58,695 nt of DNA from positions 1-58,695 of IMG/VR virus record IMGVR_UViG_3300034175_000127. One strand, 5' to 3'. Shown piece after piece: positions 14,477 through 57,958 of the stretch (position 1 is the first letter of the stretch; every line of letters starts with the position of its first letter). This DNA is from a virus (lineage: Duplodnaviria; Caudoviricetes). The translations under genes were made by a program, and so were the position numbers. The notes beneath the pieces are model-generated. The model had not been told where the DNA came from, searched no databases, and was given only the letters and a program-made list of their open reading frames with translations.

Positions 14477-14486
14477 CGATATGGAG

Positions 14487-14513
14487 GACATTGCGAAGCT
14501 GCTTCGCAATGTC
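14487..14513. repeat. Dispersed palindrome, copy 1 (GACATTGCGAAGC-T-GCTTCGCAATGTC)
   Basis: Perfect 27-bp inverted repeat; related copies at 43112, 57923, 48094 and 24547. Confidence 0.9.
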
Positions 14514-14515
14514 TC

Positions 14516-15313
14516 TTAAAATGGTGTCGAGCGAATCCTCTGTGCGTAAGTGCCGCCAATAGCTTTCTTTTCGACTTTCGGCACGGAAACCAGCTCTCCT
14601 TTCAATTCGCCAACGCTCACTCCTTGTATTCTTGCGTTGGTCTCCAGCATTGAATCCAGCTTTTGGCGCACGTCGGGCGCGACTTTTGGCGGGGCTGTCT
14701 CGACCTCGATAGCTTCGACCGGCTCACTCTCACCATTTTGCAGGTTTTGAAGCATCGACGCGATTGTTGCGTGGCTTTCAGCTACTTCCGCAACGCGCGC
14801 GCTGTTATCGCGCCATGCTGTTTCTAATGACGATGCACCTTCATAAATGCGGATAATGTTGGGCTGGCCTTCGCAAGACGTCTCACCTCCCTTTTTGCGT
14901 TTGGCTACTATGTCCCGATGATATTCCTCGATAGAAATACCCAGTTCGTCTGCGCGGCGTTGCTGGCCACGACGAATCTTCTCGCCACGGGAAAGAACCG
15001 GCTCGGGCGGCTTCGGCTCATTTGATTCCAATACGCTGCTACCAACCGCCACAACATTGTTAAAACCGCGTTCAACTGGTTCAGATACTATCGCTGCTCG
15101 CGTATAGAAAGGCTTCGCCAACTGCAAAAAGACGGTTGAGATTTCAACCGTCTCGCCCTGGCCAAGCAGCACCGTTGCGCGCGGAAAGTTCTCGTTTGGA
15201 CGGGTAGGGTGTATTTGCGAAATGAAAACTTCGCGCCCGTCCAAGTCTCCTAGTCCGGGCTGGCAGCTGATGATCTGCACTTTGTCGTGAATTTGGAAAA
15301 TTGTGGGATTCAT
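14516..15313 (-). CDS. Hypothetical protein containing a 30-aa tape-measure-like segment
   Basis: 265-aa ORF; ETAWRDNSA...ASMLQNLQN matches the tape measure at 537-626. Confidence 0.7.
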   Translation of the reverse strand: MNPTIFQIHDKVQIISCQPGLGDLDGREVFISQIHPTRPNENFPRATVLLGQGETVEISTVFLQLAKPFYTRAAIVSEPVERGFNNVVAVGSSVLESNEPKPPEPVLSRGEKIRRGQQRRADELGISIEEYHRDIVAKRKKGGETSCEGQPNIIRIYEGASSLETAWRDNSARVAEVAESHATIASMLQNLQNGESEPVEAIEVETAPPKVAPDVRQKLDSMLETNARIQGVSVGELKGELVSVPKVEKKAIGGTYAQRIRSTPF

Positions 15314-23365: not shown

Positions 23366-23569
23366 TTAGCCTTTGGTGCCAACGGCGGCTTTGAAGGTGA
23401 CGATTTGTTTTCCGTCCTTTTCTTCAACGTTGATGCTGGCATTGGTAAGTTGGGGAAAATGCGAGGCGTGATGTTTTTTCACAGCTTCGTTGGTCATGGA
23501 CTTGTCCGGCAGTTCGAGGCGTTGTCCATTGAACATGAACACGCGGGGCAGGGTAGTTTTTTCGGCCAT
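23366..23569 (-). CDS. Ubiquitin-like protein, PRTRC system protein C
   Basis: 67 aa, RVFMFNG...LPD...FPQLTNA...FKAAVGTKG ending in a free Gly; ATG overlaps the ParB-like stop. Confidence 0.85.
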   Translation of the reverse strand: MAEKTTLPRVFMFNGQRLELPDKSMTNEAVKKHHASHFPQLTNASINVEEKDGKQIVTFKAAVGTKG

Positions 23570-25476
23570 CAGTCAGCTTCCTCCTCGGAATCATCTACAT
23601 CGGTGGGCACGGCGCGCCCTTCCAGTTCAGCGATCATGTTTTCGGGTTCGATTCCCGCGCCTTCACACGCCACGTGAAAGCGTCGATACAGCGCACAGAC
23701 AGTCGCTACATTCAAATCGTGTTCGTCCAACCAGTCTGCTTCAGCGCCTGGGATGGTCGCTGTCATATCGGGGCTGGAGCTTTCGATAGGCGGCGCGGGT
23801 TTGGGCGTAGCTTTCGGCGCCGGCTTGAGGTTCTGGCCTTCACTGCTGGCGGTCGCAAAGCCAACGCCCTGGCTTACTGGTGGCGTGCTGGCCACACCGC
23901 CAACGCCCGCTTTTTGCGCGGGCGATTCGTGCGCGCGGCTTTCAAGCTGTTTGTCGTTCTCGCTCTTTTCCGGTGCTTCGTTGGCAGCATCACCGGCGCC
24001 GTCTTGGGCTACTGGCGTAGCGGCGCTTGTCCGCATTTGTAGCACGAGGAATTCGCCCTGATCGGTTAGTTTGAAATGGTGGCGCCCGTCTTTTTCTTCA
24101 TCAGTCACAAAGCGCGGTTGCAGAGCTACAAGCATCGCCGCGACGTTCGCAGGGCTGACATCGATTTCTTCGGCACTGCGCGCGATAGTCGAATTAGGAT
24201 GAAAATCGAGAGTCTTGAGAATTCGCTTTTGCTCGAAGCTGAGTTCGATGGTGCCGCTGAGAGGTGCAGCCATTACAGAGGTTTCATTTTGACTGTTTGC
24301 GCGTGCCTTTTGATCTGCAAGCAATTCAGTGCCTCGCAACGACAAAAGCAAACTTTCGCCTTGATCGGTCAGCGCAAACGTATTGTCTTCAACAACAACT
24401 AACCCTCTGGAACCCAACTCCGCTACAATGAGGCTGACTTTACCTTCCGGAATCTGTGTTTCTTCGGAGATGCTGGCCACGTCTGAATCTTGGTCAGCAC
24501 CAATAGCAACTAACACCTTTGATTCAAGAACAAGGAGTTCTTCGTCGACACTTTGCGAAGCTGCTTCCAATTGTGTCTGGGCTGGCTCTGCTTTCGGGAT
24601 TTTGGGCAGCTTTTTGACGTTGAAATCGAGGTGAATTGTCTCGGTCATGCCATCCGGTAAAACAACCAGATATTTTGGATGGACTTCTTTGACGGTCCCG
24701 AAAATCTTCGCATCCGGTGCGAGCTTCGACTTCCATTCAATGCGATCATCTGACTCGAAGACCGAAACCAGCGGCGCGCCTTTGCGTTCAACGCCACCGG
24801 CTGGCTCTTCGATTAGCTTCGGTTGCTCGCCGGCGGATTTCGCTTTTTCGGCAGCGTCCAAGCTTTCACGGACGGGCGCAACTTCCGCATCAAGACGGCG
24901 TGATGACCACTGCTCATCAGCGCATCTCTGGCCCAAAACCTCAACGGCGGTTTTGTCTTCGATGATGCTGCACAGAGTTTTAGCGTGGGTTTCAGTAATT
25001 TGGCCGCGCGTGAGCAGATCCAGCACGCTTGCGGGCAAGGCCAACAATCGCATCCGGTTGGAGACGACGGGCGCTGAAACCTTGTATTCCTCGGCAACTT
25101 GAACATTCGTTTTCCCGAAATGCTCAATCAAGTTGCGATAGCCGATGGCGATTTCCACGACGTTGAAAGAAACGTGTTCCGTGTCAGATTTGAGGGCGAG
25201 CGTCGCCATTTGCAAATCCGAATAGTCGCCAACTTCGGCATCGCAAAACTCCCATTGGAGATGTCTGAAAGCACGCACACGGCGCTCGCCATTCAGAATC
25301 TGGTGGGTGCCATCGCCGTTTGGAGTGGGACGCGCCACGATTCTATGGAGCAATCCATCATTAGCGATGCTGTCGGCCAGGGAGTCGATGTCATCGAACA
25401 ACTGGCGGGGCTGAAAAGGGTTGGGCAGAATGTCTGCAACGCGCAACCGCACTATTTTGGTGGGTGTCTGGCTCAT
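23569..25476 (-). CDS. Large ParB/Spo0J-like protein with C-terminal winged-helix-like repeats
   Basis: PNPFQPRQLF, LADSI...GLLHRIVAR, NGERRVRA, VSNRMRLLALP; two ...LTDQGE wHTH-like units. Confidence 0.85.
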   Translation of the reverse strand: MSQTPTKIVRLRVADILPNPFQPRQLFDDIDSLADSIANDGLLHRIVARPTPNGDGTHQILNGERRVRAFRHLQWEFCDAEVGDYSDLQMATLALKSDTEHVSFNVVEIAIGYRNLIEHFGKTNVQVAEEYKVSAPVVSNRMRLLALPASVLDLLTRGQITETHAKTLCSIIEDKTAVEVLGQRCADEQWSSRRLDAEVAPVRESLDAAEKAKSAGEQPKLIEEPAGGVERKGAPLVSVFESDDRIEWKSKLAPDAKIFGTVKEVHPKYLVVLPDGMTETIHLDFNVKKLPKIPKAEPAQTQLEAASQSVDEELLVLESKVLVAIGADQDSDVASISEETQIPEGKVSLIVAELGSRGLVVVEDNTFALTDQGESLLLSLRGTELLADQKARANSQNETSVMAAPLSGTIELSFEQKRILKTLDFHPNSTIARSAEEIDVSPANVAAMLVALQPRFVTDEEKDGRHHFKLTDQGEFLVLQMRTSAATPVAQDGAGDAANEAPEKSENDKQLESRAHESPAQKAGVGGVASTPPVSQGVGFATASSEGQNLKPAPKATPKPAPPIESSSPDMTATIPGAEADWLDEHDLNVATVCALYRRFHVACEGAGIEPENMIAELEGRAVPTDVDDSEEEAD

Positions 25477-28614: not shown

Positions 28615-28633
28615 TTTCCCTCCCGTGTAGGTT

Positions 28634-28785
28634 TATAATCAGTCAAGAAAAATAATTGATTGATTAATTGTGTCAAATCATACGCCCGTAATTGATTATC
28701 GTCAAGTGCTTCTTGACTGATTTTCGACTTTTTTTTCTTAATTGATTATGCTTTGTGGAAATCAATTGAATAATTGATTGATTCT
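28634..28785. promoter_or_regulatory. Immunity/control region: leftward promoter and clustered operator-like motifs
   Basis: Minus-strand TTGACG(28700-28705)-17-TATGAT(28677-28682); TATAATCAGTCAAG at 28634, CTTGACTGATT at 28712, and four TAATTGATT motifs. Confidence 0.75.
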
Positions 28786-30494: not shown

Positions 30495-31583
30495 ATGGCT
30501 GGAGTTTTAGACCGAGCAAAAAACTCGCTCGAAGGCGTGAAAATCGCGCCCAAATCGGGCGAGATTATCTACGATAACAACGTGGGAAAAGTCAGCATCG
30601 ACGCTGTTTTTCCGATGGGGCAAGACAAATGGGGCACGATGGACACGGTTTCGCGTTCACAGCCTCGCCAGAATTTCAATGAGAAAGAAATGGCGAGTCT
30701 GGCCGAGAGTCTTAGAGAACATGGCCAGCAACAGCCTATCGTGGTGCGAAGAGCGCCCCACGTTCGCGGCGCAGATCGAGTCGCCGAATATGGCATTATC
30801 AACGGCGAGCGCCGTTGGCGGGCACTCAAAAGAATCGGCGCTACGGAAATTCTTGTGCGTGTCGTGAAAGCGGACACCCGTAGCGCTTATCGTCTGGCTG
30901 TTATCAACGATATCCACAATGTCAGCCACAACTCGCTGGAGCGAGGGCAATCGCTGATTGAATGCGAAGAGGATATGCGCGAGGAATTAACAGAGTTTTT
31001 GGCCAAGCATCTGCCGCTGGCTCTGGAACAGCCACTTTCGCAGGCTGGATATGAACGGCTGCAAAAAGTCGAGCACCTCACGCCGTTGTGGATGCGAAAG
31101 GTGTTTGAGCGTGCACTTAAAACGAAACGGCAGCCAAAGGTTATTGATGAAGATGTTGCAGCGACCGTGGGTATCACCACGAAGCGCATGCAGGATCTAA
31201 CGAAACTCACAACGCTCGAGACAGAATTCAAAACCGCACTGGAAGAAGATCAAATCAACACGCGCCACGCAGGCGCACTTTTGCGGTTACCAGACAAGAA
31301 AGCTCGCAAGAAGCTCTATAAAATGATTTTGGATGATGGCTTATCAGGTGTCGATGCCGAGCAACGCGCCAAGGATATGCTTGAGCCGATTCAGAAAATC
31401 GGCGGGACTTGGAAAATCAAAGCCGCTGATCCGATGGTTCCGATGCGCGCTGCACTTTCCAGTGTGGAAGAGGCGGCCAAGGTTCTGCGCGAAACGGATG
31501 CACCAGAAAACCGCGATGAGCTGCGGCAAATGAGCGCGCAAATGCTCGAACTTCTGGCCGAAATCGAAAGCCGTTTAGCCTGA
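30495..31583 (+). CDS. parB: ParB partition protein
   Basis: QPRQNF, LAESLREHGQQQPIVVR, NGERRWRA; directly downstream of parA. Confidence 0.92.
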   Translation: MAGVLDRAKNSLEGVKIAPKSGEIIYDNNVGKVSIDAVFPMGQDKWGTMDTVSRSQPRQNFNEKEMASLAESLREHGQQQPIVVRRAPHVRGADRVAEYGIINGERRWRALKRIGATEILVRVVKADTRSAYRLAVINDIHNVSHNSLERGQSLIECEEDMREELTEFLAKHLPLALEQPLSQAGYERLQKVEHLTPLWMRKVFERALKTKRQPKVIDEDVAATVGITTKRMQDLTKLTTLETEFKTALEEDQINTRHAGALLRLPDKKARKKLYKMILDDGLSGVDAEQRAKDMLEPIQKIGGTWKIKAADPMVPMRAALSSVEEAAKVLRETDAPENRDELRQMSAQMLELLAEIESRLA

Positions 31584-32765
31584 TTCCAACTGCTTTTGAT
31601 AGAGGTCAGCGTGTTGTTGAGCTACGATTTCCCACAACACAAGCGCCATTGGGGAGTCGGGGCGTTCTAACCTGTCCCAAAACACAGGTTCGACTTCGGC
31701 GCGCGCTAATTGGCGCAAACGCTCTTGTTCGGCCTCTGGCAGTGATTCCCAGACCGCAAAGGCTTCGCGAGGATAGATTGCGTCGTCAGGTTGCGAAGGC
31801 TTCAAAACAGGCGGTTTTGGCGCTTTAGCAACCTGTTTTGAAGTCGCGGGCGTGTCGGTAGGTGGAGCGTCAATGCGTAAGGCAACATCTCCAAACTTAA
31901 AAATCGCGATTTCACCGTCATTTCCCTTGCGGTAATCGACACTTGAGAGATAGCCACGCGAGATCAATTCTTCAATGCCAGAGACCAATTTCTCGCGGAT
32001 TTTGGACGGATAAGCGTAAGGTGCCATTCCCAGCCGGTCGCGTAGTTTCATCACACCGATTTCAAACTCACGGCGCGGTGGCTTGTGAGCATTACGCATC
32101 ATGTCCAGAAAACGAAACAGGCGGCGCGCGGTAGGAATATCCAGCGAGAGCATGAAATCCAAAGCAAGTGAGCGAACATTGCCCGCTAAAAACGACTCGT
32201 GCAGCGTTTCACTCCAACGAAACCACGAAAGGGGCAGTGTATTTTGGCCTTTGCGCCCAGGTGGCTCCGCAACAATACCAAAGGCTTCGAGCAAACCAAA
32301 TGAAACAGCTTCGTAAGTGGCTTTAGCTCGGGCGTTCCAAAATGAGTGGCGTGCACTTATTGTCACGCTGGCGAGTCGTTTAAAACAGTCTTCCAGCGTG
32401 CGATAGGTGCGCGCATCATGGCTCCAACCCATGCGTTTGAGCACATCGAAGCGCGAAAAAGGCACGAGACGCGGCCATTCACCATGGCGCGCGATTTCGC
32501 GTGTCAGCTGCAAAAGCACCAAATAAAGCAATTCTTCATTGGGCCCAGGCAAGCCTAATTCTGTGTGGCCATTGACTTCCCACGAGGCTTTCACGATTTT
32601 GCCGTTGGGGAGTTGGCGATCATATTCGTATTGAATCAGTGATTGCCCCGCTCGTGATGCCGCTTGCAAAAGCGCGAAGGGGTTTCCTGCGAGATTCATT
32701 TCATCGCGTCCCGAATGTTCTTCTCCGATTAAAACCAATGTGCTTTGCGACTTTGAGTGGAGCAT
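31575..32765 (-). CDS. repA: Plasmid replication initiator (RPA/RepA-type)
   Basis: DEMNLAGNPFAL, GLPGPNEE, ARRLFRFLD motifs; iteron array directly upstream. The ORF-track extension to 33134 reads through the iterons. Confidence 0.8.
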   Translation of the reverse strand: MLHSKSQSTLVLIGEEHSGRDEMNLAGNPFALLQAASRAGQSLIQYEYDRQLPNGKIVKASWEVNGHTELGLPGPNEELLYLVLLQLTREIARHGEWPRLVPFSRFDVLKRMGWSHDARTYRTLEDCFKRLASVTISARHSFWNARAKATYEAVSFGLLEAFGIVAEPPGRKGQNTLPLSWFRWSETLHESFLAGNVRSLALDFMLSLDIPTARRLFRFLDMMRNAHKPPRREFEIGVMKLRDRLGMAPYAYPSKIREKLVSGIEELISRGYLSSVDYRKGNDGEIAIFKFGDVALRIDAPPTDTPATSKQVAKAPKPPVLKPSQPDDAIYPREAFAVWESLPEAEQERLRQLARAEVEPVFWDRLERPDSPMALVLWEIVAQQHADLYQKQLESG

Positions 32766-32862
32766 GATTTTGGATTTTAAATTTAAAAATGTCTCTTTTC
32801 TTTTTCTTTCTAAAGAATACATTCTTTCTAAGGCTTTCCCCTTGGCATTTTGAGCGTGCTTT

Positions 32863-33078
32863 CTTCCCCCAAATACCGCGTTTCCTTCCTCTACATACCG
32901 CGTTTTGGTGGCTTTTTTCTTCCCCCAGATACCGCGTTTCCTTCCCCTGCATACCGCTTTTCCCCAAAAAGACTTCCCCCAGATACCGCGTTTCCATGTT
33001 CTAAACGCGGTATCTGGGGGAAATCCACGCTCAAACAGACTCCCTCCTTTTAAAAGAAACGCGGTATCTGGGGGAAGA
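32863..33078. repeat. Iteron array / plasmid origin
   Basis: Seven copies of TTCCCCCAGATACCGCGTTT-like units: five direct (about 32863, 32886, 32919, 32941, 32973; two degenerate) and two inverted (33003, 33056). AT-rich tract at about 32770-32830. Confidence 0.9.
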
Positions 33079-33087
33079 AATAGCCTC

Positions 33088-33558
33088 TCAGGGTGTTTTT
33101 TCTTTGCGTGGTCGTCCCCGTCCCCTCTTTTCACCCTGTGGCTTGGTTAGGTCGGTGCCGGTTTTAATCCGCGGGTATTGTTTGCGAGGTGCTGGATCAA
33201 AGCGTCGGCCGCCATTGTGGACTTCTTCGAGTGCTTCACAATAATTCCGGATTGCTGCATCGAAAAATGAGGTTTGGTCGAGAAAAAGCGGCGACCCACT
33301 CAGCGCAGCAACACAATTATCAATGCGCTGTGCGTTGTCTATGCTGACGTAGATGTTCTTCTGGCCGAGCGTTTCAGGTGGCGCGCCCGCCTTGACGAGC
33401 GAGCCAATAGCCTGCGAAGTGACGGTGCGTGACCGCCTGGGACGCACTTGACCTAACTTTTTGCGCTCGCGATGACGCTCCAGCACATCTTTGTCGTATT
33501 GGCGACGCTGTTCAGGCGTCATATTTTTGAGTGGGATTGGAAGTCGTTTAATTGGCAT
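33088..33558 (-). CDS. Ribbon-helix-helix/ParB_C-like DNA-binding protein with C-terminal AT-hook
   Basis: QTSFFDAAIRNYCEALEEVHNGGRRF; KRGRGRPRK; starts next to the recombinase stop. Confidence 0.55.
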   Translation of the reverse strand: MPIKRLPIPLKNMTPEQRRQYDKDVLERHRERKKLGQVRPRRSRTVTSQAIGSLVKAGAPPETLGQKNIYVSIDNAQRIDNCVAALSGSPLFLDQTSFFDAAIRNYCEALEEVHNGGRRFDPAPRKQYPRIKTGTDLTKPQGEKRGRGRPRKEKTP

Positions 33559-34553: not shown

Positions 34554-34582
34554 ATTATATGCCTGTAATTGAAATAATGCAA
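34554..34582 (-). promoter_or_regulatory. Sigma70 promoter of the recombinase (leaderless)
   Basis: TTGCAT-17-TATAAT, with ATG 7 nt after the -10 box. Confidence 0.75.
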
Positions 34583-34597
34583 GTATTATTTCATTTT
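34567..34597. repeat. 12-6-12 inverted-arm site, copy A (27 bp identical to 40579-40605)
   Basis: AATTGAAATAAT-GCAAGT-ATTATTTCATTT; 11 of 12 arm positions pair. Confidence 0.85.
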
Positions 34598-35400
34598 TGG
34601 CGAATCATAAGCGGGTTAACGTGCCCGGAGTCGAGATTGATAAAGGCGCCGTGTCTGTCGATTGGACCACGAAACAAACGCCAAAGCAGGTCGAGCGCGA
34701 AAGTCACAACGGTTTGGTTAATGAAGAGATCTTGCTTCTCAAGCGCTTCGGCCAGTGAGCAAGAAGGCGTGTCATCTTCAGGTAGGGCCTCATCGAGGAG
34801 CTCAGGGAAAATATCGAACAAGTGAGGAAGGCGTGGCATCAGTTCCTCTTTGACACTGTGATTTGTCCCACTCTTCAAAGCACGCTTTGAGACTGGGACT
34901 AAACGCTTTTGGGCTTGGAGTTCGCCTAAAATTACTTGGCCGTCACGCGAACGATTTCCCATGTCGAGCCAGTATTTAGAAAGGTAGTTATTCTCCATGC
35001 CCTTGAATATCTCACGCCGTGAAGCTGCTGTATCTGTGCAGGTAATCAAGATGTTGCATGAGTTTCGTCCCTGGAATTTCTCTGGGCGCGCTGTCCAATT
35101 AAGCCCATAAAAGCAGTTCAGGCGATGGATCAGCACAGTAGCTTTGTTCTGGCCGATATCGGAAGGGCTAAAGAGTTGGCGACCGACGTTACTTTCGCTC
35201 ACACGGTCAAAGTCATACGCCGTCACATCGAGACCACTCGGATGACCAATAGCCCGTAAACCACGGTCAATGCGAGCTAACCCAGTCAACATCTGTGAAC
35301 CATTGCCACCACAGCCAATAACAAAAACCGAAATGGATTGGGTCAGCATTGAGGACGCAATTGTATGCGTCTCATTATTAGGGTCAATCGGTTTCGTCAT
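34591..35400 (-). CDS. PRTRC system ThiF/E1-like protein
   Basis: GCGGNGS, DFDRVSESNVGRQ, CTD, WLDMGN..GQVILG, PSCSLAEALEKQDLFIN. Confidence 0.92.
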   Translation of the reverse strand: MTKPIDPNNETHTIASSMLTQSISVFVIGCGGNGSQMLTGLARIDRGLRAIGHPSGLDVTAYDFDRVSESNVGRQLFSPSDIGQNKATVLIHRLNCFYGLNWTARPEKFQGRNSCNILITCTDTAASRREIFKGMENNYLSKYWLDMGNRSRDGQVILGELQAQKRLVPVSKRALKSGTNHSVKEELMPRLPHLFDIFPELLDEALPEDDTPSCSLAEALEKQDLFINQTVVTFALDLLWRLFRGPIDRHGAFINLDSGHVNPLMIRQK

Positions 35401-36151
35401 GATTTAAGATGTCCTCCACTGTGACAGGGCTTTCTGCGCCTTGAATTGGTTCTAAGTAGGACCAGGGAAACCTTTCGGCCCCGACCATTTCCCGCCAGAG
35501 CGCATCATGGCTCGAATAATTGAGAAATTTGATCCGGTAATTGGAGTGCGTGTAATGGGTGTCGAAAAATGCGCGTTCCCACTGAGGAATACCACTCGTC
35601 GCCAAATTGTCTGGATAGGGTGCGTTGCCTCGGCACATCGCGCCAGTCGCGTAAAGGTTGAAATAAGGAGCGTAATAGATTGGTGTATCATTTCGAGGAC
35701 GCTCAGAATTTGCTAACGCGAAAACATAAAGGCGCCCTGGTCTTGCCAAAAACAAAAGTGATGGATGACAAACGATCTTGCCGCTCATTTCTTTATTGAA
35801 TTTTGAATTCGAAGTGCTGAAGTAAATTGGGCGTCTTTCCGAGGGAACAAACCACGCCAGCAACCCACCATCACTGCAAAGAACATGATCGGGCGAGACG
35901 GTTCGACGACTGGGTGTAGCTTCCAGTGTGCGAACCAAATTTTCCAGTGCCGGGCGGCTCAATAACTCACCGGCAGTGAGTGCCATTTTTTCCCCGTCAT
36001 TATGAACGCCGTGGACTGTAGCCAGGGCGGTATTGCTTCCTTCATAAATCAGCAGGGCGCGGTTGCATTTCAGCTGTTCGCCCTTAGGCAGAAAGCCCCG
36101 AACGGGCATCAACTCTGGCTCCGTCCTTGTCTGTGTGCGGATGAGTGTCAT
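35384..36151 (-). CDS. PRTRC system protein B (prokaryotic E2 family D)
   Basis: ATVH, WFVPSERR, LYVFAL...RP, APYFNLYATGAMCRGN, WERAFF..HYTH. Confidence 0.88.
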   Translation of the reverse strand: MTLIRTQTRTEPELMPVRGFLPKGEQLKCNRALLIYEGSNTALATVHGVHNDGEKMALTAGELLSRPALENLVRTLEATPSRRTVSPDHVLCSDGGLLAWFVPSERRPIYFSTSNSKFNKEMSGKIVCHPSLLFLARPGRLYVFALANSERPRNDTPIYYAPYFNLYATGAMCRGNAPYPDNLATSGIPQWERAFFDTHYTHSNYRIKFLNYSSHDALWREMVGAERFPWSYLEPIQGAESPVTVEDILNHDETD

Positions 36152-37461
36152 ATTAAAGTCCTAAATTCTTGGTCATCATCTTCGTTCAATATTTCCATGA
36201 GCGTGGCTTTCGCTTTAAAGGGATCGTTTTCAACGGGATCTGGCCACAATTGCGCCCACCGTTCCCGCGCCGCGACGGAAGGTCGATATTTTTTCCCGAT
36301 GTTCTTTTCCGTATTGATTGCGGTCAGAATCGAGTCGGCAAGGCGAATAAGCCGCGCGCTGCGCCTGAGCCTGTCTATGGCGCTACTGACAGAAGCTGGA
36401 TCTTCGGTGTGGAAAAGGAACGCCATGCAGCTCTCGCAGAAATCCCCCGCTTGCCATGCGTTTTCTGCGTTGTCATCGTAAACCTGAAAAGTGCAGTCGG
36501 TAGATTGCCATGCGACGAGCACAGGTATTACGAAAAAATCCCATTCGCCCAGCTCGGCAAGTTGGCTAAGTTGGTCGGGCCGTTCATTGCCCGTCGGGAG
36601 CAGAGATTTGATTTCAAGTGCTGATGTAAGTGCTTGGTGTTCCCAAGAGACAGGATCGACCTTCTGAAGCGCGCGGCGGACTGCTTTTTCATTCCAGACC
36701 GGATTTATCGCTTTTGCCGGAGCATTCTTTTCAAGTTCCAAGAGAGAGGGATTATAAAACTGGCATTTTTCGCCAGTTTCTTCCGCCTGGGCTATCTCTT
36801 CCATCAAACACTGCTCATACCAATCGCTTCCATCTAGATATTCGTGGGCATCAGTTGTTGACCATCGACCAACAGTAACCCCGAGCGCGTTTAGCAAGCT
36901 GTGAAGAGTTGCATAGCCTGCGCCTCGAGCGCGTTTTTCTAGTTGAGTGATGCACTCACTCACAATGCAGCGAATCGCGCGGCGACGCGCGGTTAGCTCT
37001 ATCATGATCGCGCCTTGGGCCCAGTCATTCTTCGCAGAGTCGGAATAATCGAAATTGAGATGAATCGTGTGCAAATCATGTATATGCAGGTCATCGCGTA
37101 CGAAACGTTCGAGCCCGCTTTGAAGTGTTTCACCGAATGAACCGCGCCAATCGTTATCGATCAAGACACCTTCACGATGAAGGGCGGCACAGATCGAGCG
37201 GGCGCTGTGGTCGGTGGCGATTTTATAACCAGTTGGAATTGTCGAGGGAATCGCGGGAATGCTAAGCGTGTTCAAGGGAGAATCGGCAATTGGTGCCAGG
37301 CGGGGCGCAGTGGCTCGCCGCGATTTTTCGCCAGAGCGTCCGACACTTGCATCGCGAGTCGTTCCGCGTCGGGGTTGCTTTGAAATTGTTCCGCGATGAG
37401 TAGTGCTTCGCCTGTCTTTGGTTTGTCTTGCAGGGCTTGGGTTAAGGTTTTGGGTTCGCAT
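36148..37461 (-). CDS. PRTRC system protein F-like
   Basis: Position upstream of proteins B and ThiF; LSIPAIPSTIP N-terminal motif; start uncertain. Confidence 0.65.
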   Translation of the reverse strand: MRTQNLNPSPARQTKDRRSTTHRGTISKQPRRGTTRDASVGRSGEKSRRATAPRLAPIADSPLNTLSIPAIPSTIPTGYKIATDHSARSICAALHREGVLIDNDWRGSFGETLQSGLERFVRDDLHIHDLHTIHLNFDYSDSAKNDWAQGAIMIELTARRRAIRCIVSECITQLEKRARGAGYATLHSLLNALGVTVGRWSTTDAHEYLDGSDWYEQCLMEEIAQAEETGEKCQFYNPSLLELEKNAPAKAINPVWNEKAVRRALQKVDPVSWEHQALTSALEIKSLLPTGNERPDQLSQLAELGEWDFFVIPVLVAWQSTDCTFQVYDDNAENAWQAGDFCESCMAFLFHTEDPASVSSAIDRLRRSARLIRLADSILTAINTEKNIGKKYRPSVAARERWAQLWPDPVENDPFKAKATLMEILNEDDDQEFRTLI

Positions 37462-37954
37462 GGTGTTTTCATGGGTTATCGCGTAACTGCAACCAAAATT
37501 AGCTTGCAATTTTTGGTTTCGCATATTGAATTGATTGTGAGTTTGGGAGTTGGTAGGTTGGCGGCAAGGAGTCAAAACGAGTGCTTTAAATCCCTTCTGC
37601 CATTTCCTGCTTCGCTGAGTGCGTTTGATGTGAAAGCTGAAAGTGAATGGTTAACGGCAAGGAGTTGAAACGAGCGCGATTTTCAGGGAGTTGAAAGGTC
37701 TTTTCCACATAAGCACGCGGGCAACTCTTTCCGTCGCTGCAATGCTACTTCCGCGCAGCGTAGGAAACGGGGCGCCGCGACTTTTGGGGCAGACTCGGCA
37801 AACGGCAAGGCCCAAAAATGGCGCGGCTCCGAGCGAACAACATTTGGGAGCCGCAAAATAGCGGGGCGCGATTTTCGCGCGAAATTGCGGTTTCGCCTTA
37901 TGCGCCCGCCGTCAGACTCAACGCGCGGGCGCCTCGGTATATGTGGTTGAGTTT

Positions 37955-38371
37955 TCATGGCGTCGCCTCATTTTCGAGCGTTTCGAGATAGGTTTCAGCG
38001 GCAATTTTGGCCGCGTCTATGTCCTCGAAGAAATCTATGAAAATGGCGTCGCCGCCGCGCTCATCAACGCGCCAAAGAGTAAAAGCGGTTTCGTTGCTGA
38101 CACAAGAGGCAACAGTAAAAGCGGGAAAAGTTTCGCCGTCGTCGTTGGTTTCGCTAACGATTTCGCCCGCTAGGGCATCGTAGTAATCAACCCACACAAG
38201 CGGGCAAAGGTGCGCCGCGATTTCGTTTAATTCTGATGTGTCACGCCCATTAAGGGCGATTAAGCGGCGCGCGGCAGTACGATAAATGACCCGCATTTTG
38301 GCAATTTCGCAAGGCGTTTTGCCCGCTTTGAGCCACTGCGCGTATTTTTGGTTAGCAGTGAGTTTCGACAT
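37955..38371 (-). CDS. Hypothetical protein
   Basis: 138-aa ORF downstream of the ArdC-like gene. Confidence 0.5.
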   Translation of the reverse strand: MSKLTANQKYAQWLKAGKTPCEIAKMRVIYRTAARRLIALNGRDTSELNEIAAHLCPLVWVDYYDALAGEIVSETNDDGETFPAFTVASCVSNETAFTLWRVDERGGDAIFIDFFEDIDAAKIAAETYLETLENEATP

Positions 38372-38381
38372 GATGTTCCGC

Positions 38382-38426
38382 CGTGAAACGGGGCCGCGTC
38401 TCCCACACGCGGCCCGCGTTTTCACG
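38382..38426. other. Long stem-loop between the ArdC-like gene and the next gene
   Basis: CGTGAAACGGGGCCGCGT-loop-ACGCGGCCCGCGTTTTCACG. Confidence 0.6.
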
Positions 38427-39297
38427 CTATCGGCTCACCCGCCTTGATTATCTTGTCAGCGGCTCCAAAGATACGCCGCGCGCTCTTTTCGGGCACTTGC
38501 TCACCTTTAAACCAGTGCTGAATGTAGCCGCGCGAGTAATCAGCGCCAGCTAAACCGAAACTTTCACAGAGAATATAGGCAACGCTTTCCGCTTCCAATT
38601 CCCTTAAATCGCGCGTGATTGTCTCACCATCAGCAAAGGTTTCGCCTGTTACATGACCTAAAACATGGTGCGCGATTTCATGGAAAAGCGTTTTATGTGG
38701 CAACGCGGCCACCGGATTAACGGCCAAGACCGCGCGCCCGTCTCGCATCCCTGCAAACCCCTGACAATTACCATCAGGATGTGAAAACGGAACTTGTGAA
38801 ATTCCAAGCACGCCAAAGGCTTTTGCTTTGTCCCATGCCAGAGCGGGCGGCTCCGGTGTCAGCATCGGTTCCCCTTCGGTTTGTGAGTAGGTGAACCAGT
38901 GAGGGCGCCAGATAAAGAAGCGGCGCACAACAACGCCAGCCGCGTTTCGTTCCGTCTCGCTCGCCTCTGTTGTTTCCGCGCCTTGCGCGTCACTTTTGGC
39001 CCGCGTTTCGACTGGTTGGCACAATTGCAAACCGCGCTCGCCCTTTTTGATTTTGCGGCCCTTATTGAGCCAGCCCGCAAACGTATCGAGAGGCCCGACC
39101 TCAATTTCGCGCGCGGTGCATTGCATAATCGCGGCGATTTGATTGCCCCGCGAGTAGGGCCAAAACGCGCGGTAGGCGTCGTGCATCAGTCCTGGAACTG
39201 TCACCGCTTCGCGCAGAATTTTTTCCCACTGCATCGGGTTAGGCTTGACTGTTGGCGCCACTTTGGGCGCGGTTACTTCTGTTGTCGTATATCCCAT
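38422..39297 (-). CDS. ardC: ArdC-like ssDNA-binding/zincin antirestriction protein
   Basis: YSRGNQ, TFAGW..GRKIKKGE, QTEGEP, HEIAHH, ELEAES, SRGYIQHW. Confidence 0.82.
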   Translation of the reverse strand: MGYTTTEVTAPKVAPTVKPNPMQWEKILREAVTVPGLMHDAYRAFWPYSRGNQIAAIMQCTAREIEVGPLDTFAGWLNKGRKIKKGERGLQLCQPVETRAKSDAQGAETTEASETERNAAGVVVRRFFIWRPHWFTYSQTEGEPMLTPEPPALAWDKAKAFGVLGISQVPFSHPDGNCQGFAGMRDGRAVLAVNPVAALPHKTLFHEIAHHVLGHVTGETFADGETITRDLRELEAESVAYILCESFGLAGADYSRGYIQHWFKGEQVPEKSARRIFGAADKIIKAGEPIA

Positions 39298-39325
39298 GAT
39301 AAAATCTTCCTTGTCGTATCCCTTG

Positions 39326-39363
39326 ACGGTTCCAGTGCGCTAACACTGGAACCGTCTTTTTTT
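39326..39363 (+). terminator. Hairpin with T-tract, antisense to the cassette
   Basis: GACGGTTCCAGTG-CGCTAA-CACTGGAACCGTC followed by a T run. Confidence 0.6.
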
Positions 39364-39367
39364 GGGT

Positions 39368-40510
39368 TTACGCTGTTGTTTTGGCGGCTGTTTTTGGGGC
39401 CGCGACTTTGGCATCAAACGCGGCGCGGGCGCGTTCTTTCCACTGAGCGGGCGCAAGTGTTCCGAGTTGCCCCAGTTGAAAATCAAGCGATTTTTGAAGG
39501 CGTGGTTTAGCGTCGGGGTTTTGGCTCACAAGCGTTGCCACATAATCAAGCGCCCACTCTGAGAGGTCAGCGCGACTGAGTTGCGGCGCGGTGCGCGTTT
39601 CGCTTGCAGTTGGCGCAGCCGGAGCGGGAACCGCTTCACAAGGGGAAACCGCGTCAATGACAACGCGCGGCGCGGCTTGCTTCGGTTTTGGCGGCTCGCA
39701 TTGTGGCTCAATTCGCGCAGCGACAACGCCGCTTTTTTTGGTGCTTTTTGTGGCGCTTTTCGCCATTTTGGGCGCTTCTCTGTTGCAAGGCATCAAAAGC
39801 CCGCTAAAGTCACCATCTTTGAATAAGAGCGGTTTTTTTGGCCCTTCAATCGAGGCGGAAAAGCGGGCGCCCTTCACACTTTGCAGGGCATCGCGCAGAT
39901 AATCCAATTTCATGGCGAAGGAAAAGCAATCGCCCGAAACTTTGCCGAAAATCGGCAGAAAGAGCGGCCCGCCGGATGTTCTCACACAGAGATAAGGCGC
40001 GACCCCATCAGCGACGAAATAAACGGCGCCCTCTGGTTCATCGCTCGCCAGCGGCGCAACCTTTTCGAGAAGCGACAAAAAGTGCGGGCGCTCCAAGTCA
40101 AGCACCATGCCGCGAGGCGAGGCTTTCGCAGCTTCTAACGGCTTTTCCCAGTCCACATAAGCCGTTTTCGCGTCAAGCGACGCCACACGCGCCCCATCAA
40201 TTAAAAGTGCATCCATGCCAAATGAAAGCGTTATATCGCCCTTTTTGGCTTTCAACGCGGCAAAAACCTTTTCGACTTGTGCGCCAGCGAGAAGCGCAGA
40301 ACCGCCGATTTTGCCTTTACCCACAGCGCGGGCGCTAACACTCGCCAGATGCAAGCGGCTCGCATCGCATCCAACGATAAGGAGCGCCGCGTTTGTGTAG
40401 CGCAATTGCAACGAGTTGAGGCTTTGACCGCCTGAGTCTTTGGAAACGGCTATTTTTGCCGCTTGGAGAGCGCCGCTAAACGCCCGTCCATCTACTGCTA
40501 TTTGTGTCAT
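39368..40510 (-). CDS. DNA polymerase III beta-clamp-like protein with C-terminal extension
   Basis: VGCDASRLHL, YVDWEK, MKLDYLRDAL, KPLLF...GLLMP resemble DnaN motifs. Confidence 0.65.
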   Translation of the reverse strand: MTQIAVDGRAFSGALQAAKIAVSKDSGGQSLNSLQLRYTNAALLIVGCDASRLHLASVSARAVGKGKIGGSALLAGAQVEKVFAALKAKKGDITLSFGMDALLIDGARVASLDAKTAYVDWEKPLEAAKASPRGMVLDLERPHFLSLLEKVAPLASDEPEGAVYFVADGVAPYLCVRTSGGPLFLPIFGKVSGDCFSFAMKLDYLRDALQSVKGARFSASIEGPKKPLLFKDGDFSGLLMPCNREAPKMAKSATKSTKKSGVVAARIEPQCEPPKPKQAAPRVVIDAVSPCEAVPAPAAPTASETRTAPQLSRADLSEWALDYVATLVSQNPDAKPRLQKSLDFQLGQLGTLAPAQWKERARAAFDAKVAAPKTAAKTTA

Positions 40511-40561
40511 TGTATCCCTTTTGCCACCGCTTTGGATTGATATATCACGGCGACAAGAGAA

Positions 40562-40590
40562 ATTATAATCAGTCAAGAGAAATAATGCAA
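40562..40590 (-). promoter_or_regulatory. Sigma70 promoter driving the clamp/ArdC/PRTRC cassette
   Basis: TTGCAT-17-TATAAT; overlapped by TATAATCAGTCAAG and by site copy B. Confidence 0.8.
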
Positions 40591-40605
40591 GTATTATTTC
40601 ATTTT
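40575..40605. repeat. 12-6-12 inverted-arm site, copy B
   Basis: AAGAGAAATAAT-GCAAGT-ATTATTTCATTT; same spacer and orientation as copy A. Confidence 0.85.
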
Positions 40606-41232
40606 ATTTTTAAAAAAGAGCGTTCACGCCTTGTATATCTTCAATCTGTGTCAAAAAATAGTGCGCTTGACTGATTATAATCACGCGTAAACGAGACACG
40701 ATAACACGCATTTTAAGAGAGGAAAACAGGGGAGAGAGCGCACCTTTTGACGAAAGTTGGCGCCGATTTTACGAGGTGGGCGCCCTGATTCTCGCAAAAT
40801 CGTGACATTTTGAGAAAAACGGGCGTAAATCAGTCAAAACGGGCCTTTTCGGGCGGTTTTGGCTCGCTTTGTGACGTTTTGGCGTCATTTTGTCACGTTT
40901 TCGGGCCTTGCCTCTGGTCGCGCCATTTTGAGGCGGTTTCTGTTTTGGAAGATACATTCTCATACACAAAAAGCGGGGCGATTTTGGCGGCGTTTCGAGA
41001 GCCAGAGGCGAGCGACGCAAGGTGATGAGCGAGCGCACCACATCGCGGCGCACTTTCGGCTGTTTGTGGCTGATTTTGTCACGTTTCGGGCGGTTTTTTG
41101 GCGATTTACACAGGGGTGGCCTTGCATCCTGCGAGGGGTAGTCGCCACGATCTACAACCATTTTTATTTTGGGAGGGGAAAACGCGGTTTTTTGTGTCGT
41201 TTTCTGTCTCGAATCAACACAATTTTGAAGAG

Positions 41233-41375
41233 CAAGGTAACTATTTTTTGAAAATCCACGCTCAGACAGTTACTTTAGTTACCCTGATTACCCAAAAAAA
41301 TAATCTTTTCGCGTGGGCGCACGTTAGAAAAAACTTTTAGTATTTTGGGTAACTAAGGTAACAAGGTAACTATTT
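41233..41375. repeat. GGTAAC/GTTACC repeat cluster, putative P4/D5-type origin
   Basis: GTTACT, GTTACC, ATTACC (41269, 41278, 41287) face GGTAAC x3 (41348, 41357, 41365); extra GGTAAC at 41236; just downstream of the D5 helicase gene. Confidence 0.7.
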
Positions 41376-41393
41376 GGAATTCGGCTCAAAAAC

Positions 41394-41423
41394 AAAAAAA
41401 CCCGCGACGAATCGCGGGTTTTT
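41394..41423. terminator. Bidirectional intrinsic terminator
   Basis: AAAAAAACCCGCGA-CGAA-TCGCGGGTTTTT just after the helicase stop. Confidence 0.8.
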
Positions 41424-41438
41424 GGTGGTGTGACATCG

Positions 41439-42992: not shown

Positions 42993-43111
42993 GGTGTTCG
43001 GTCAAATAAAGCGCGCCCAGGGGCCAATTCCTGCGGCGCGCTTTTTCGTGCGTGGGCGAGAAAAAGGGCGCGCCGACGGCGCGGATGTGTAGCGAAAATT
43101 ATAGCAATCTT

Positions 43112-43168
43112 GGAGACATTACGAAGCAGCTTCGCAATGTCTCCCTTTAGGCGCTATAATCAGTCAAG
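43112..43168 (+). promoter_or_regulatory. Late-operon promoter overlapped by a 33-bp palindrome and the 14-mer motif
   Basis: GGAGACATTACGAAGC-A-GCTTCGCAATGTCTCC (43112-43144); TCGCAA-17-TATAAT; TATAATCAGTCAAG at 43155. Confidence 0.7.
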
Positions 43169-44195: not shown

Positions 44196-45779
44196 ATGGC
44201 CTCTGACCTTGTAGAAGTTGATGACGACGGCAAAATGACCGTCAATTACCACTCCGGCCAAGCGATGGCGATGGACTCTATTGCGACTGAGACCTATGTT
44301 ATCGCCGGTTTGCAGAGTGGGAAAACCACGTTTTTGCCCCATTGGTTGCGCCGCGAAATGATACGTTGCGGCCCAGGCAATCGTGGTTTGGTTTATCTCG
44401 CCTTCGGCCCGACGTATGCGGTTCTTGGCAACAAGGGCGTGCCCGAATTCCGTCGCATTTTCGAGGACATAACCGGCTGGGGCCGCTTCATCGGCTCGCC
44501 GAAATCGCGTATCGAGATCACCAAAAAAGGTGAACAGGCTTTATGGGGACACGAGCAAAAAGAAACGACGAGCATTTATTTTTGCTATGCCGATGACCCG
44601 AGCAGCTTCGCGGGATATACCGCGCTCGCGGCTGTTGGTGATGAAATCGGCCAGCATCGTTTCAAGAGTTCAGCCTACGACGAAATGAAGGCGCGTCTCA
44701 CCATCGCACGTGGCAAAGTGGCGCCAAACAACGCGAAAGTCGGGATGCCTGCGGGTTTGAAAATGGGCCGTTTTTGTGGTGGCTCCATCGTTTACGGTTT
44801 GAACTGGGTTTACGAACATCGAAAGCAGTGGGCTGCCGCCGTGGTTGCAGCGAAAAACGACCCCGATTTCCAAGAGCGGCTACGAATCGGCGCAATCCAT
44901 CCTGTTTATCACTTCGTGCGTTTTGACTCGACCATGAACCCGGCTTTTCCTCAACACGAGTTTGAGATTGCTAAAGCCACGATGGAAGAATGGTATTTCA
45001 ATATGCGCTATCGCGGCATATTTTCGCGCCCTGCGGGCCTCATCTACGGCGCATGGAAACCAGAATTTGAGCGTTTGGAAGCCGATTTAGCACGCGCGCA
45101 GATGTGGCCGATTCCTCTTGACTGGCCACGTGCAGCGGCATTTGATCCAGGCGATGTGAACTTTTACGGGTTATTTGGTGCTCAGCAGCCCAATGACAAA
45201 TGGTTGCTTTACGACACCTATTCGGATGGAGGTGAGTTGTCCTTTCGCCAGCGGGGACAAGTTATTTCTGAGCGAGAGCCTAACCTAATTTGGAGTGTTG
45301 TCGGCCAGATTTCCGAAGACCGTTGGCGTCGTGAGCTTCGCCTAGGCGGGTTGCAGTGCGAGGCGCCGCCAATCAAAGATTTTTGGGCGGGCATTAACAC
45401 CAGCATCGCGGCGATAAAACTCGCTCAAATCGAAATGGTGAAGGAGAAAATGCGCGATGTCATTGACGACTTCGGCACATTTTCAAGGCCTGTCGATGAT
45501 CGCACTGGCCATGTCATCATGGGCCAAAAACCTGACGATGAATCGCAGCGGCATTACATGGCCGCGCTTCGTTATTTCAGTCTTAAAGCATTTTTTGGGC
45601 TGGGCACCAACTATGGCGCGGTTGCTGGCGGTGGCGATTCCGGAAGTGGATCTGCGCCGCCTCCAATCGACCTGAGAAACCGTCATCAACCAGCTTGTGA
45701 GTCTTCGCTTCGAGCGCACGTAGTGCGCGGCGGTCCCATTCGTGGCGCGCGCACTTCTGGCGACCGTTTTTTGGACTGA
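44196..45779 (+). CDS. terL: Terminase large subunit
   Basis: AGLQSGKT Walker A, VGDEIG Walker B, MNPAF, AFDPG nuclease motif, HYMAALRY. Confidence 0.85.
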   Translation: MASDLVEVDDDGKMTVNYHSGQAMAMDSIATETYVIAGLQSGKTTFLPHWLRREMIRCGPGNRGLVYLAFGPTYAVLGNKGVPEFRRIFEDITGWGRFIGSPKSRIEITKKGEQALWGHEQKETTSIYFCYADDPSSFAGYTALAAVGDEIGQHRFKSSAYDEMKARLTIARGKVAPNNAKVGMPAGLKMGRFCGGSIVYGLNWVYEHRKQWAAAVVAAKNDPDFQERLRIGAIHPVYHFVRFDSTMNPAFPQHEFEIAKATMEEWYFNMRYRGIFSRPAGLIYGAWKPEFERLEADLARAQMWPIPLDWPRAAAFDPGDVNFYGLFGAQQPNDKWLLYDTYSDGGELSFRQRGQVISEREPNLIWSVVGQISEDRWRRELRLGGLQCEAPPIKDFWAGINTSIAAIKLAQIEMVKEKMRDVIDDFGTFSRPVDDRTGHVIMGQKPDDESQRHYMAALRYFSLKAFFGLGTNYGAVAGGGDSGSGSAPPPIDLRNRHQPACESSLRAHVVRGGPIRGARTSGDRFLD

Positions 45780-46486
45780 TGATATTGACTCCGATGAAAG
45801 TCTTGATTTCACGATACGCGGATGCTCCAAGCATCGGGCAGGCAGAGGTCGAACGACTTTTGCCGCTTTTTCGCGCCGGTGATGAGCGGGCAGGTCAAAT
45901 CATCGTCGAAGGCAATATGCGTTTTGTGGTTTATGTGGTTAGCACACAATTCGTGTGGGCGTGGAACCATCAGGGCGCCGCTTTATCAGCTGAAGATTTA
46001 TTCCAGGAAGGTGCTATCGGTTTGTGTCGCGCTCTGAGTAGCTACGACCCGAATCGCGGGCGTTTTATAACACATGCTTGGTATTGGGTGCGCCACTCGA
46101 TTCAGTCTGCGGTCAAAAATACCGTTTCGCGCGGAAACGAAGAAACCAGTCTGGAGAAATTTGAGGGTGTCGAATCGAGCCATTGGCGAGATGAACCTTT
46201 TTTAATTGAGGCTTTCACTGATCCTCAAAACATTGCGGTTGAAGTCGAAGACCACGAGCAGAAAGAGTTGTTGAGACAGCGAATTGCCCAAGCTCTGGAG
46301 CAGCTATCGCCCCGCGACGCGCATATTTTGCGCTGGCGTTTTGGGATAGGTTGTTCGCCTGCGACGCTTCAGCAAATAGCTACATCGCTTGGCGTGAGCC
46401 GTGAGCGTGTTCACAAAATCGAGAAGGATGCCCGTGTGCGCCTGGGCAAAACCCTTGTCGTTCACAGCGATAACTCGAAAACCTAA
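45779..46486 (+). CDS. Sigma-70 family RNA polymerase sigma factor
   Basis: NMRFVV, EDLFQEGAIGL...YDPNRG.F.T.AWYWVR (region 2); TLQQIA..LGVSRERVHKIE (region 4). Confidence 0.9.
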   Translation: MILTPMKVLISRYADAPSIGQAEVERLLPLFRAGDERAGQIIVEGNMRFVVYVVSTQFVWAWNHQGAALSAEDLFQEGAIGLCRALSSYDPNRGRFITHAWYWVRHSIQSAVKNTVSRGNEETSLEKFEGVESSHWRDEPFLIEAFTDPQNIAVEVEDHEQKELLRQRIAQALEQLSPRDAHILRWRFGIGCSPATLQQIATSLGVSRERVHKIEKDARVRLGKTLVVHSDNSKT

Positions 46487-57912: not shown

Positions 57913-57922
57913 AAGAAAGAAA

Positions 57923-57951
57923 AGACATTACGAAGCAGCTTCGTAATATCT
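57923..57951. repeat. Dispersed palindrome copy (AGACATTACGAAGC-A-GCTTCGTAATATCT)
   Basis: 29 bp with one arm mismatch, 7 nt before the tape-measure ATG. Confidence 0.9.
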
Positions 57952-57958
57952 CCCCATC

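Follow-up and report, generated by a model that had tools for sequence, protein, structure and literature searches.

Phage P1 persists as a plasmid prophage and encodes its own tyrosine recombinase, Cre, which acts at loxP, a palindromic site with an asymmetric spacer (13-8-13) near the recombinase gene. P1 has one loxP, and two such sites in direct orientation delete the DNA between them without accessory factors. In the res sites of the Tn3 family, which consist of several subsites and are served by serine resolvases, the recombination site doubles as the operator by which the recombinase represses its own operon. Xer systems with a single recombinase, namely XerS/difSL and XerH/difH, have been reported (PMC2965235, PMC5357621, PMC5241119), and the recombinase gene of XerS/difSL is reported to be linked to its site (PMC2731167). 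Direct cognate dif sites are reported to recombine with loss of the cassette between them (‘Xer-cise’), and dif modules have been reported in Acinetobacter (10.1101/758037, PMC6449649, PMC7399989, PMC13141974). Here, a locus that resembles each of these systems in part was analysed in a 58,695-nucleotide stretch of viral DNA (Duplodnaviria; Caudoviricetes), hereafter the window. The window is the entire, linear IMG/VR record IMGVR_UViG_3300034175_000127, estimated by CheckV to be 64% complete, so that 36% of the genome is missing. It contains two identical copies, A and B, of the 27-mer GAAATAATGCAAGTATTATTTCATTTT at the ends of a 6-kb segment, with copy A beside the gene (rec) of an Xer-like tyrosine recombinase (Rec). 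An earlier note on this DNA had interpreted the pair as recombinase sites bounding an excisable or acquired cassette, an interpretation that is partly supported overall. On balance, the best explanation of the element as a whole is a portable module in which a recombinase site and operator is fused to a promoter.

Both copies of the 27-mer read in the same orientation on the + strand, 6008 bp apart, as reported earlier. No other match with up to three mismatches is present in the window, which makes them the only perfect sites of the whole record, and none of 100 shuffled sequences had two matches. The 27-mer consists of a 22-bp palindrome plus 5 bp. On the minus (coding) strand, the palindrome reads GAAATAAT-N6-ATTATTTC in both copies. 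The asymmetric 6-bp spacer, GCAAGT, is as previously described, but the arms are shorter than the 12 bp given then: perfect inverted arms measure 8 bp (9 in copy A), and extension to 11 bp brings in one mismatch in copy A and two in copy B. This is the layout of a dif/lox-type core site, with inverted arms of ~11-13 bp around a spacer of 6-8 bp. Copy A contains the stop codon of a ThiF-family gene (34591-34593), and its palindrome lies ~23-24 nt from the ATG of rec (34546), in line with the earlier observations. No other AT-rich dif-like palindrome is found near rec in the window. The spacers of copies A and B are identical (6/6) and the copies are direct; therefore, the arrangement permits excision.

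It is very likely that the 27-mer is a protein-binding module embedded in a promoter. Both copies immediately precede genes of the minus strand, on which every gene between 40510 and 31575 is encoded, and both read AAAATGAAATAATAC-TTGCAT-TATTTC followed by 11 nt and TATAAT. The predicted promoters, P_A and P_B, have a -10 hexamer identical to the consensus (6/6) and, at a spacing of 17 nt, a -35 hexamer TTGCAT that matches TTGACA at three of six positions. This is a sigma-70-type layout (16-18 nt, upstream of a gene) in which only the -10 is consensus. The generic promoter scanner, which needs 4/6 per hexamer, therefore lists neither. The overlap with a promoter that had been claimed for each copy thus holds, on the minus strand, but calling it a consensus promoter was an overstatement. 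When copies A and B are aligned, 27 of 27 positions are identical, then only 3 of the next 11, then again 6 of 6 at TATAAT, at equal spacing. Such a pattern is one of selection on two separate elements at a fixed spacing, unlike that of a uniformly decaying duplication. The predicted transcription start would give a leaderless or nearly leaderless rec mRNA, while P_B is followed by an untranslated leader of ~50 nt with AAGGGA ahead of the ATG at 40510. Copy A heads the operon of the Xer-like recombinase and replication genes and copy B that of the clamp-like, ArdC-like and PRTRC (F, B and ThiF) genes.

Besides the two perfect copies, which had been counted correctly, a third, degenerate copy of the palindrome was missed earlier. 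Compared with copies A and B, its arms match at 13 of 16 positions and its spacer at 1 of 6. It is separated by 11 nt from a -10 TATAAA (28632-28637), the same register as in copies A and B, and the promoter at 28632-28648 heads a minus-strand operon that runs from 28614 to 23366 and ends in a ParB-like and a ubiquitin-like gene. With up to three mismatches, the palindrome pattern has three matches in the window compared to 0.31 expected, and none of 100 shuffles reached three. The site is thus found at several promoters in a fixed register, with its arms kept and its spacer free. Since the third copy keeps the arms but not the spacer, operator function does not need the spacer.

The promoter at copy B also belongs to a small family. 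Its core, CTTGACTGATTATA, occurs at four exact places and as one variant, compared to 0.10 expected over the whole window. As CTTGACTGATTATA(AT), 14-16 nt long, it is located at 28634 (-), 40564, 40666 (+) and 43155 (-), with the variant at 28712 (+). Within this core, TTGACT stands only 3 nt from TATAAT, hence it is not a normal -35. The core may be a phage-specific promoter element, possibly linked to the phage sigma factor encoded at 45779-46486. Copy B is therefore a mosaic, its distal 27 nt being those of copy A and its proximal 16 nt those of the promoter at 28.6 kb. Given a third copy with a different spacer and a copy B that is part of a promoter family of four to five members, regulation by itself is enough to account for the repeat. 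By sequence, the 27-mer element is a promoter/operator module, putatively used at three promoters. Such a duplicated promoter/operator is the outcome that had been named as refuting the cassette. Seven TAATTGATT-type repeats (28653-28783) were also observed where the 28614 operon and the g28809-parA-parB operon diverge, and may be a partition site or an operator array.

Rec gives its best model matches to XerC, XerD and XerA and also matches the Phage_integrase family, with 4a8e and 1a0p as the nearest solved chains. No variation is seen at the catalytic residues R, K, H, R, H and Y among six aligned relatives. Relatives share 38-48% identity with Rec, and rec is the only open reading frame (ORF) common to their contigs and the window, or to each other. 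The family comprises IMG/VR loci L138-L196 and metagenome loci L121-L126, and is linked to a palindrome with the consensus ACTTATGAGAA-N6-TTCTCATAAGT, of dif type (11-6-11), with conserved arms and variable spacers that often start with TG on the rec-coding strand. Allowing one mismatch, TGAGAA-N6-TTCTCA has 14 sites (8 exact) in 13 of the 59 IMG/VR loci with relatives, compared to one match for the backwards pattern and a mean of 0.375 for 40 palindromes with permuted arms. A position matrix identified the site in 20 of 63 loci, only four of which are new, the matrix being built from 17 sites in the other 16. In eight relatives, the site ends 2-37 nt before the start codon of rec, a range that includes the distance found in the window; in others, it heads a short operon containing rec, or follows rec. 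The L154 site has a TTGACA-18-TATAAT promoter on one side and the ribosome-binding site on the other. Variant arms are seen in L122, L154 and L173. In five whole records of relatives (two of them at least 94% complete), exactly one perfect site each was found, with two-mismatch matches at control level. This family-wide tie of phage Xer-like recombinases to a single dif-type site is the most useful new result of the analysis.

The conserved linkage between site and recombinase supports the architecture of the window locus but not its sequence, since the arms differ: those of the window (GAAATAAT) do not resemble those of the relatives (TATGAGAA), and no site of the relatives' type is present in the window. 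The assignment of the window palindrome to Rec thus rests on position and architecture. As neither a relatives-type nor any other dif-like palindrome is found near rec, the window palindrome is the best candidate on both counts and the likely cognate site of Rec, despite arm sequences unrelated to those of the relatives. The Xer/dif-like architecture proposed earlier is borne out by the core-site layout, the catalytically complete Xer-like recombinase next to it and the linkage of its relatives to a dif-type palindrome. The adjacent recombinase is a reasonably probable binder of the 27-mer, which would make the element a dual recombination site and operator.

Compared with XerS/difSL and XerH/difH, the locus has the same single Xer-like recombinase, near-palindromic core, 6-bp spacer and site beside the gene, and the relatives of Rec show this linkage, with one site per genome. 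However, those systems are chromosomal, while Rec and its relatives occur in phages or plasmid-like phages. Moreover, the arms in the window are unlike those of Rec's own relatives, the site lies in a promoter, and two perfect copies plus a degenerate one are present instead of one. As in Cre/loxP, a plasmid-type prophage brings its own recombinase, and near the recombinase gene there is a palindrome whose spacer is asymmetric, but arms and spacer are 8-11 and 6 bp in the window and the nearest solved relatives of Rec are Xer proteins. The likeness to Tn3 res is that one element would serve as recombination site and operator, the repression being inferred here; where res has serine resolvases and several subsites, the window offers a candidate tyrosine recombinase and a simple core.

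As a portable cis-regulatory module, the 27-mer would consist of a palindromic binding site fused at a fixed register to a promoter, with the palindrome spanning approximately -45 to -24 and centred on the -35 position. The two perfect copies and the degenerate one would lead into three operons of a plasmid-like phage that serve early or maintenance functions: rec, the gene of a 156-aa protein, the putative origin and repA; the clamp-like, ArdC-like and PRTRC F, B and ThiF genes; and a nuclease, a RecT-like, a ParB-like and the PRTRC C gene. The adjacent Xer-like recombinase is the most likely binding protein, its relatives each keeping one dif-type palindrome that heads their own gene or operon. 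The site would be the core site of Rec, presumably resolving multimers of the plasmid prophage, and at the same time an operator, where Rec bound to the -35 region would damp transcription, including its own. Four parts of this scheme are inferred: active promoters, binding by Rec, repression on binding and resolution of multimers at the site. Recombination between A and B is possible, but is not needed to explain the repeat.

Several observations weigh against this explanation. Apart from the unrelated arms, the site of the relatives lies at or after the -10, while that of the window covers the -35, and the relatives have one site per genome, while three promoter-linked copies would suit an ordinary transcription factor equally well. 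The -35 of the predicted promoters matches the consensus at just 3/6, and tyrosine recombinases acting as transcriptional repressors are uncommon. The spacer and the five extra bases of A and B are identical, beyond what an operator needs according to the third copy, which hints at a recombinational relationship. Finally, the 36% of the genome estimated to be missing could hold the true regulator or further sites.

The best surviving alternative is that Rec recombines A with B, the 6-kb segment having entered a single site as a circle and/or being lost as a 6008-bp circle. Loss would leave one intact site and promoter before rec, and the segment would be the counterpart, carried by a phage, of modules between Xer sites. 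Such an excisable or integrated module, with biologically meaningful recombination between A and B, is rather unlikely, and the on/off switch of the cargo proposed earlier would be a hypothetical consequence that the data do not require. The geometry argues for it, with direct repeats of identical arms and identical asymmetric spacer, a catalytically complete recombinase adjacent to one of them and sharp boundaries of identity (27/27, then 3/11). The spacer is kept at 6/6 between A and B, although the third copy shows that an operator can do without it. Moreover, the second perfect copy is an exception among relatives with one site per genome: a screen of 64 loci with relatives for exact direct repeats (minimum length 18 nt, minimum distance 300 nt) revealed no repeat containing the recombinase-linked palindrome around a segment. 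Xer recombinases are reported to excise cassettes between direct dif sites (10.1101/758037), and Xer-site modules are treated as mobile (PMC6449649, PMC7399989). The window segment shares with these dif modules a gene cassette between two short Xer-type sites, but there the host XerC/XerD act, while here the candidate enzyme is the element's own. Furthermore, dif modules are defined by recurrence across plasmids, and such recurrence was sought for the window module and not found.

Traces of movement are indeed lacking in the data searched. In Logan contigs of four runs, neither the empty-site junction nor the 6008-bp circle proposed as a check was found; no joint, loose end or deleted form occurs at either site, which is weak evidence at a depth of 2-10 and in contigs that drop rare variants. 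Contigs of X1, possibly the source sample, and of X2, which is independent (records 4 and 9), bridge both sites in the full arrangement, while both sites are in gaps between the contigs listed for X3. The 22-mer palindrome has no other occurrence in IMG/VR, and a scan of IMG/VR for the palindrome with a free spacer gave at least 117 unrelated AT-rich places, none with this spacer. By megablast, neither phage nor plasmid records contained near-identical DNA. With RepA and the D5 primase as queries, no relative of the backbone was retrieved, hence no cassette-less allele, another check suggested earlier, is known. Among PRTRC relatives in eight genome loci, none has this recombinase after ThiF, and ParB...F-B-ThiF are contiguous. 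Thus, neither the module in other replicons or contexts nor empty sites in relatives, as would be expected of a mobile module bounded by Xer sites, were encountered.

In composition, the segment does not differ from the rest of the window. Its GC content is 0.526 compared to 0.528 elsewhere, and the tetranucleotide deviation peaks over 36-45 kb without being bounded by the sites. The spacing of the -10 and the shared core at copy B are expected of a resident promoter and not of an incoming joint, and the segment encodes an incomplete PRTRC system, as the genes of the ubiquitin-like and ParB-like proteins are 10 kb away. Among the other PRTRC loci, flanking repeats are seen only in L133, where a 35-nt promoter-like repeat lacks a conserved palindrome; this supports repeated promoters, not a conserved recombination cassette.

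Some details of these loci were observed in passing. L133, a contig of an Armatimonas metagenome-assembled genome (MAG), has its PRTRC operon (ParB...ThiF) between 35-nt direct repeats at 3211-3245 and 7762-7796, which are 89% identical. The repeat resembles an extended -10 promoter, and an ATG 6 nt after the second copy points to a leaderless gene. Just upstream of the first copy lies the gene of a tyrosine recombinase of 405 aa that shares 30% identity with Rec. In the direct-repeat screen, a 28-nt repeat in L158 was rejected as an attachment site because it belongs to coding sequence that is conserved between two tandem units of 85% similarity. L158 and L155 are one 15.2-kb IMG/VR record (G409), with two tandem units of ~8.6 kb, ~85% identical and each with a recombinase, and with direct terminal repeats. 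Either the element is tandem or two variants were assembled into one record.

A bolder version, in which the cargo is naturally ‘floxed’, that is, inserted or removed as a 6-kb cassette by the phage's own Xer-like recombinase at the -35 operator of the recombinase's promoter, and in which Rec belongs to a widespread, undescribed family of single phage Xer-like recombinases with one dif-type site each, is improbable as a whole. If true, the activity of a split ubiquitin-like conjugation system would be coupled to the level of the recombinase and to the content of the cassette, and the recombinase family could be a platform for cassette exchange among phages and plasmid prophages.

Alternatively, the 27-mer could be the operator of a different factor, either a phage repressor or activator or a host protein. 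The adjacency to rec would then be incidental, the Rec site would be elsewhere or in the missing 36%, and no recombination would take place at the 27-mers. Three promoter-linked copies in the same register, centred near -34.5, are in agreement with this, as are the free spacer of the third copy, typical of ordinary two-fold operators, and arms unrelated to the recombinase-linked palindrome of the relatives. In addition, several relatives have their site 0.5-3.3 kb from rec, so that adjacency is not obligatory. However, this explanation is also improbable, as there is no other dif-like palindrome near rec, the distance between site and rec start agrees with that of relatives, and no candidate regulator emerged. 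The small proteins adjoining the sites have no DNA-binding family match in Pfam, PHROGs or NCBIfam. Single-sequence folds of two of them were uninformative, the 71-aa first gene giving one long helix and the 156-aa protein a predicted local distance difference test (pLDDT) score of 51.5. A recurrent host motif or attB was rejected as well: with up to one mismatch, 401 genomes of Armatimonadota contain 15 places in 11 genomes compared to 7 in the control, which is near control level and provides no host-wide motif. At the 11 of these 15 places that were fetched (four were not), no homologue of 32 tested window proteins (long ORFs) adjoins. In five Armatimonadota genomes with PRTRC relatives, palindrome matches appear only at two mismatches, at control level.

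It is highly improbable that the repeat is an assembly artefact or a recent duplication without function, for which only the perfect identity of the two copies speaks, since identity ends sharply and resumes at the -10, contigs of three separate runs match the window with no differences listed and bridge both copies in X1 and X2, the 27-nt repeat is shorter than the 31-letter words behind those contigs, and a diverged third copy exists.

Should the palindrome be a recombinase site, the promoter-fused module would be a compact phage case of one element acting as recombination site and promoter operator, and a cargo operon would lie between two duplicate copies competent for recombination. This cargo, which includes a possible anti-restriction protein and components of ubiquitin-like conjugation, would offer a testable model of the gain, loss or co-regulation of accessory modules in plasmid-like phages. 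A recombinase family with a recognisable single cognate site would also aid annotation and possibly yield new tools for site-specific recombination. Were the element no more than a shared operator, it would be a regulatory repeat of an ordinary kind.

The features of the locus are listed in Table 1. The E1/E2/ArdC/clamp content described earlier is broadly right, corresponding to PRTRC ThiF, PRTRC protein B, an ArdC-N-like and a clamp-like protein, and the ubiquitin-like gene is indeed outside the segment.

Table 1. Sites, predicted promoter elements and genes at the 27-mer locus and in the operon headed by the third palindrome (window coordinates)
Feature	Coordinates	Strand	Details
Copy A of the 27-mer	34571..34597	-	palindrome GAAATAAT-GCAAGT-ATTATTTC = 34571-34592; ~-45 to -24 of the predicted recombinase promoter
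Copy B of the 27-mer	40579..40605	-	same register upstream of predicted promoter P_B
-10 TATAAT of P_A	34554..34559	-	11 nt from palindrome; recombinase ATG 7 nt further on
Core of P_B	40562..40577	-	CTTGACTGATTATAAT with -10 TATAAT
Third, degenerate palindrome	28649..28670	-	AAAATAAT-TGATTG-ATTAATTG
Xer-like tyrosine recombinase (Rec), 328 aa	33560..34546	-	R-K-H-R-H-Y catalytic set present
156-aa basic protein, co-oriented after rec	33088..33558	-	fold model low-confidence
Iteron array	32838..33080	.	~20-22-nt units TTCCCCCAGATACCGCGTTT, four direct and two inverted
Replication initiator RepA (Pfam RPA)	31575..33134	-	
PRTRC ThiF-family E1-like protein	34591..35400	-	TIGR03736, 300 bits vs cut-off 144.75
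PRTRC protein B, Prok-E2_D (E2-like)	35384..36151	-	155.7 vs 131.45 bits
PRTRC protein F-like / alpha-hel2 protein	36148..37575	-	below both curated cut-offs; PRTRC F 29.8 vs 58.4 bits
Two small ORFs, 91 and 156 aa	37683..38425	-	no family match
ArdC-N-like domain protein	38422..39297	-	22.9 bits vs cut-off 22.6; weak zincin-like C-terminal part
Sliding-clamp-like protein	39368..40510	-	phrog_947 (PHROG processivity factor), E 2.4e-8
PRTRC protein C (Prok_Ub, ubiquitin-like)	23366..23569	-	52.8 vs 45.95 bits
ParB-like protein	23569..25476	-	PRTRC ParB 43.9 vs 278.6 bits

With respect to the PRTRC system (NCBIfam TIGR03734-TIGR03742), ThiF, B (E2-like) and C (ubiquitin-like) pass the curated cut-offs, but a single cassette with ParB and F of PRTRC type is not present, both being below their cut-offs and the genes split. 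The system occupies two operons 10 kb apart, the ParB-like and C genes at 23.4-25.5 kb and F, B and ThiF at 34.6-37.6 kb in the 6-kb segment, while in the relatives from Armatimonadota MAGs ParB...F-B-ThiF are contiguous. Both halves are headed by related promoter/palindrome modules. An anti-restriction role of the ArdC-N-like protein is tentative, given its similarity just at the cut-off. For the clamp-like protein, the dnaN model scored far below its cut-off and no sequence match was found in the PDB.

Downstream of copy A, rec is followed by the 156-aa gene, the iterons and repA, with parA and parB beyond. The iterons fall within the 5' end of repA as annotated and are probably a plasmid-type origin, the true repA start probably being downstream of them. 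A Mu-type portal, a D5-type primase and the sigma factor are also encoded. Together with the plasmid-type genes, these give the element the appearance of a phage that has maintenance functions of plasmid type. The PRTRC relatives closest to those of the window come from Armatimonadota MAGs, and the window DNA is found in metagenomes of three biocrust samples; Armatimonadota as the host is a tentative assignment.

A strong 13-bp hairpin with a T-run on the + strand (39325-39356) is located in the 70-nt gap between the minus-strand clamp-like and ArdC-like genes, and may partly separate the clamp-gene transcript from the rest of the operon. Adjoining the D5 primase, ~700 bp without a convincing gene (40700-41430) hold direct repeats spaced by 21 nt (40840-41107) and inverted repeats (41269-41362), with a rightward copy of the promoter core pointing in. 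This region may be a second, perhaps lytic, origin. A second repeat family has five copies (14478-14518, 24540-24580, 43106-43146, 48079-48119 and 57915-57955), each a palindrome of ~29 nt with the core GACATTGCGAAGC...GCTTCGCAATGTC, the pair 14487/43113 being 97% complementary. One copy is located between the D5 primase and a divergent gene for a 268-aa DNA-binding-like protein, and the family may be another operator or a structured RNA element. Finally, a protein with a PAS domain and a response-regulator receiver domain is encoded at 12350-13369 of this phage genome.

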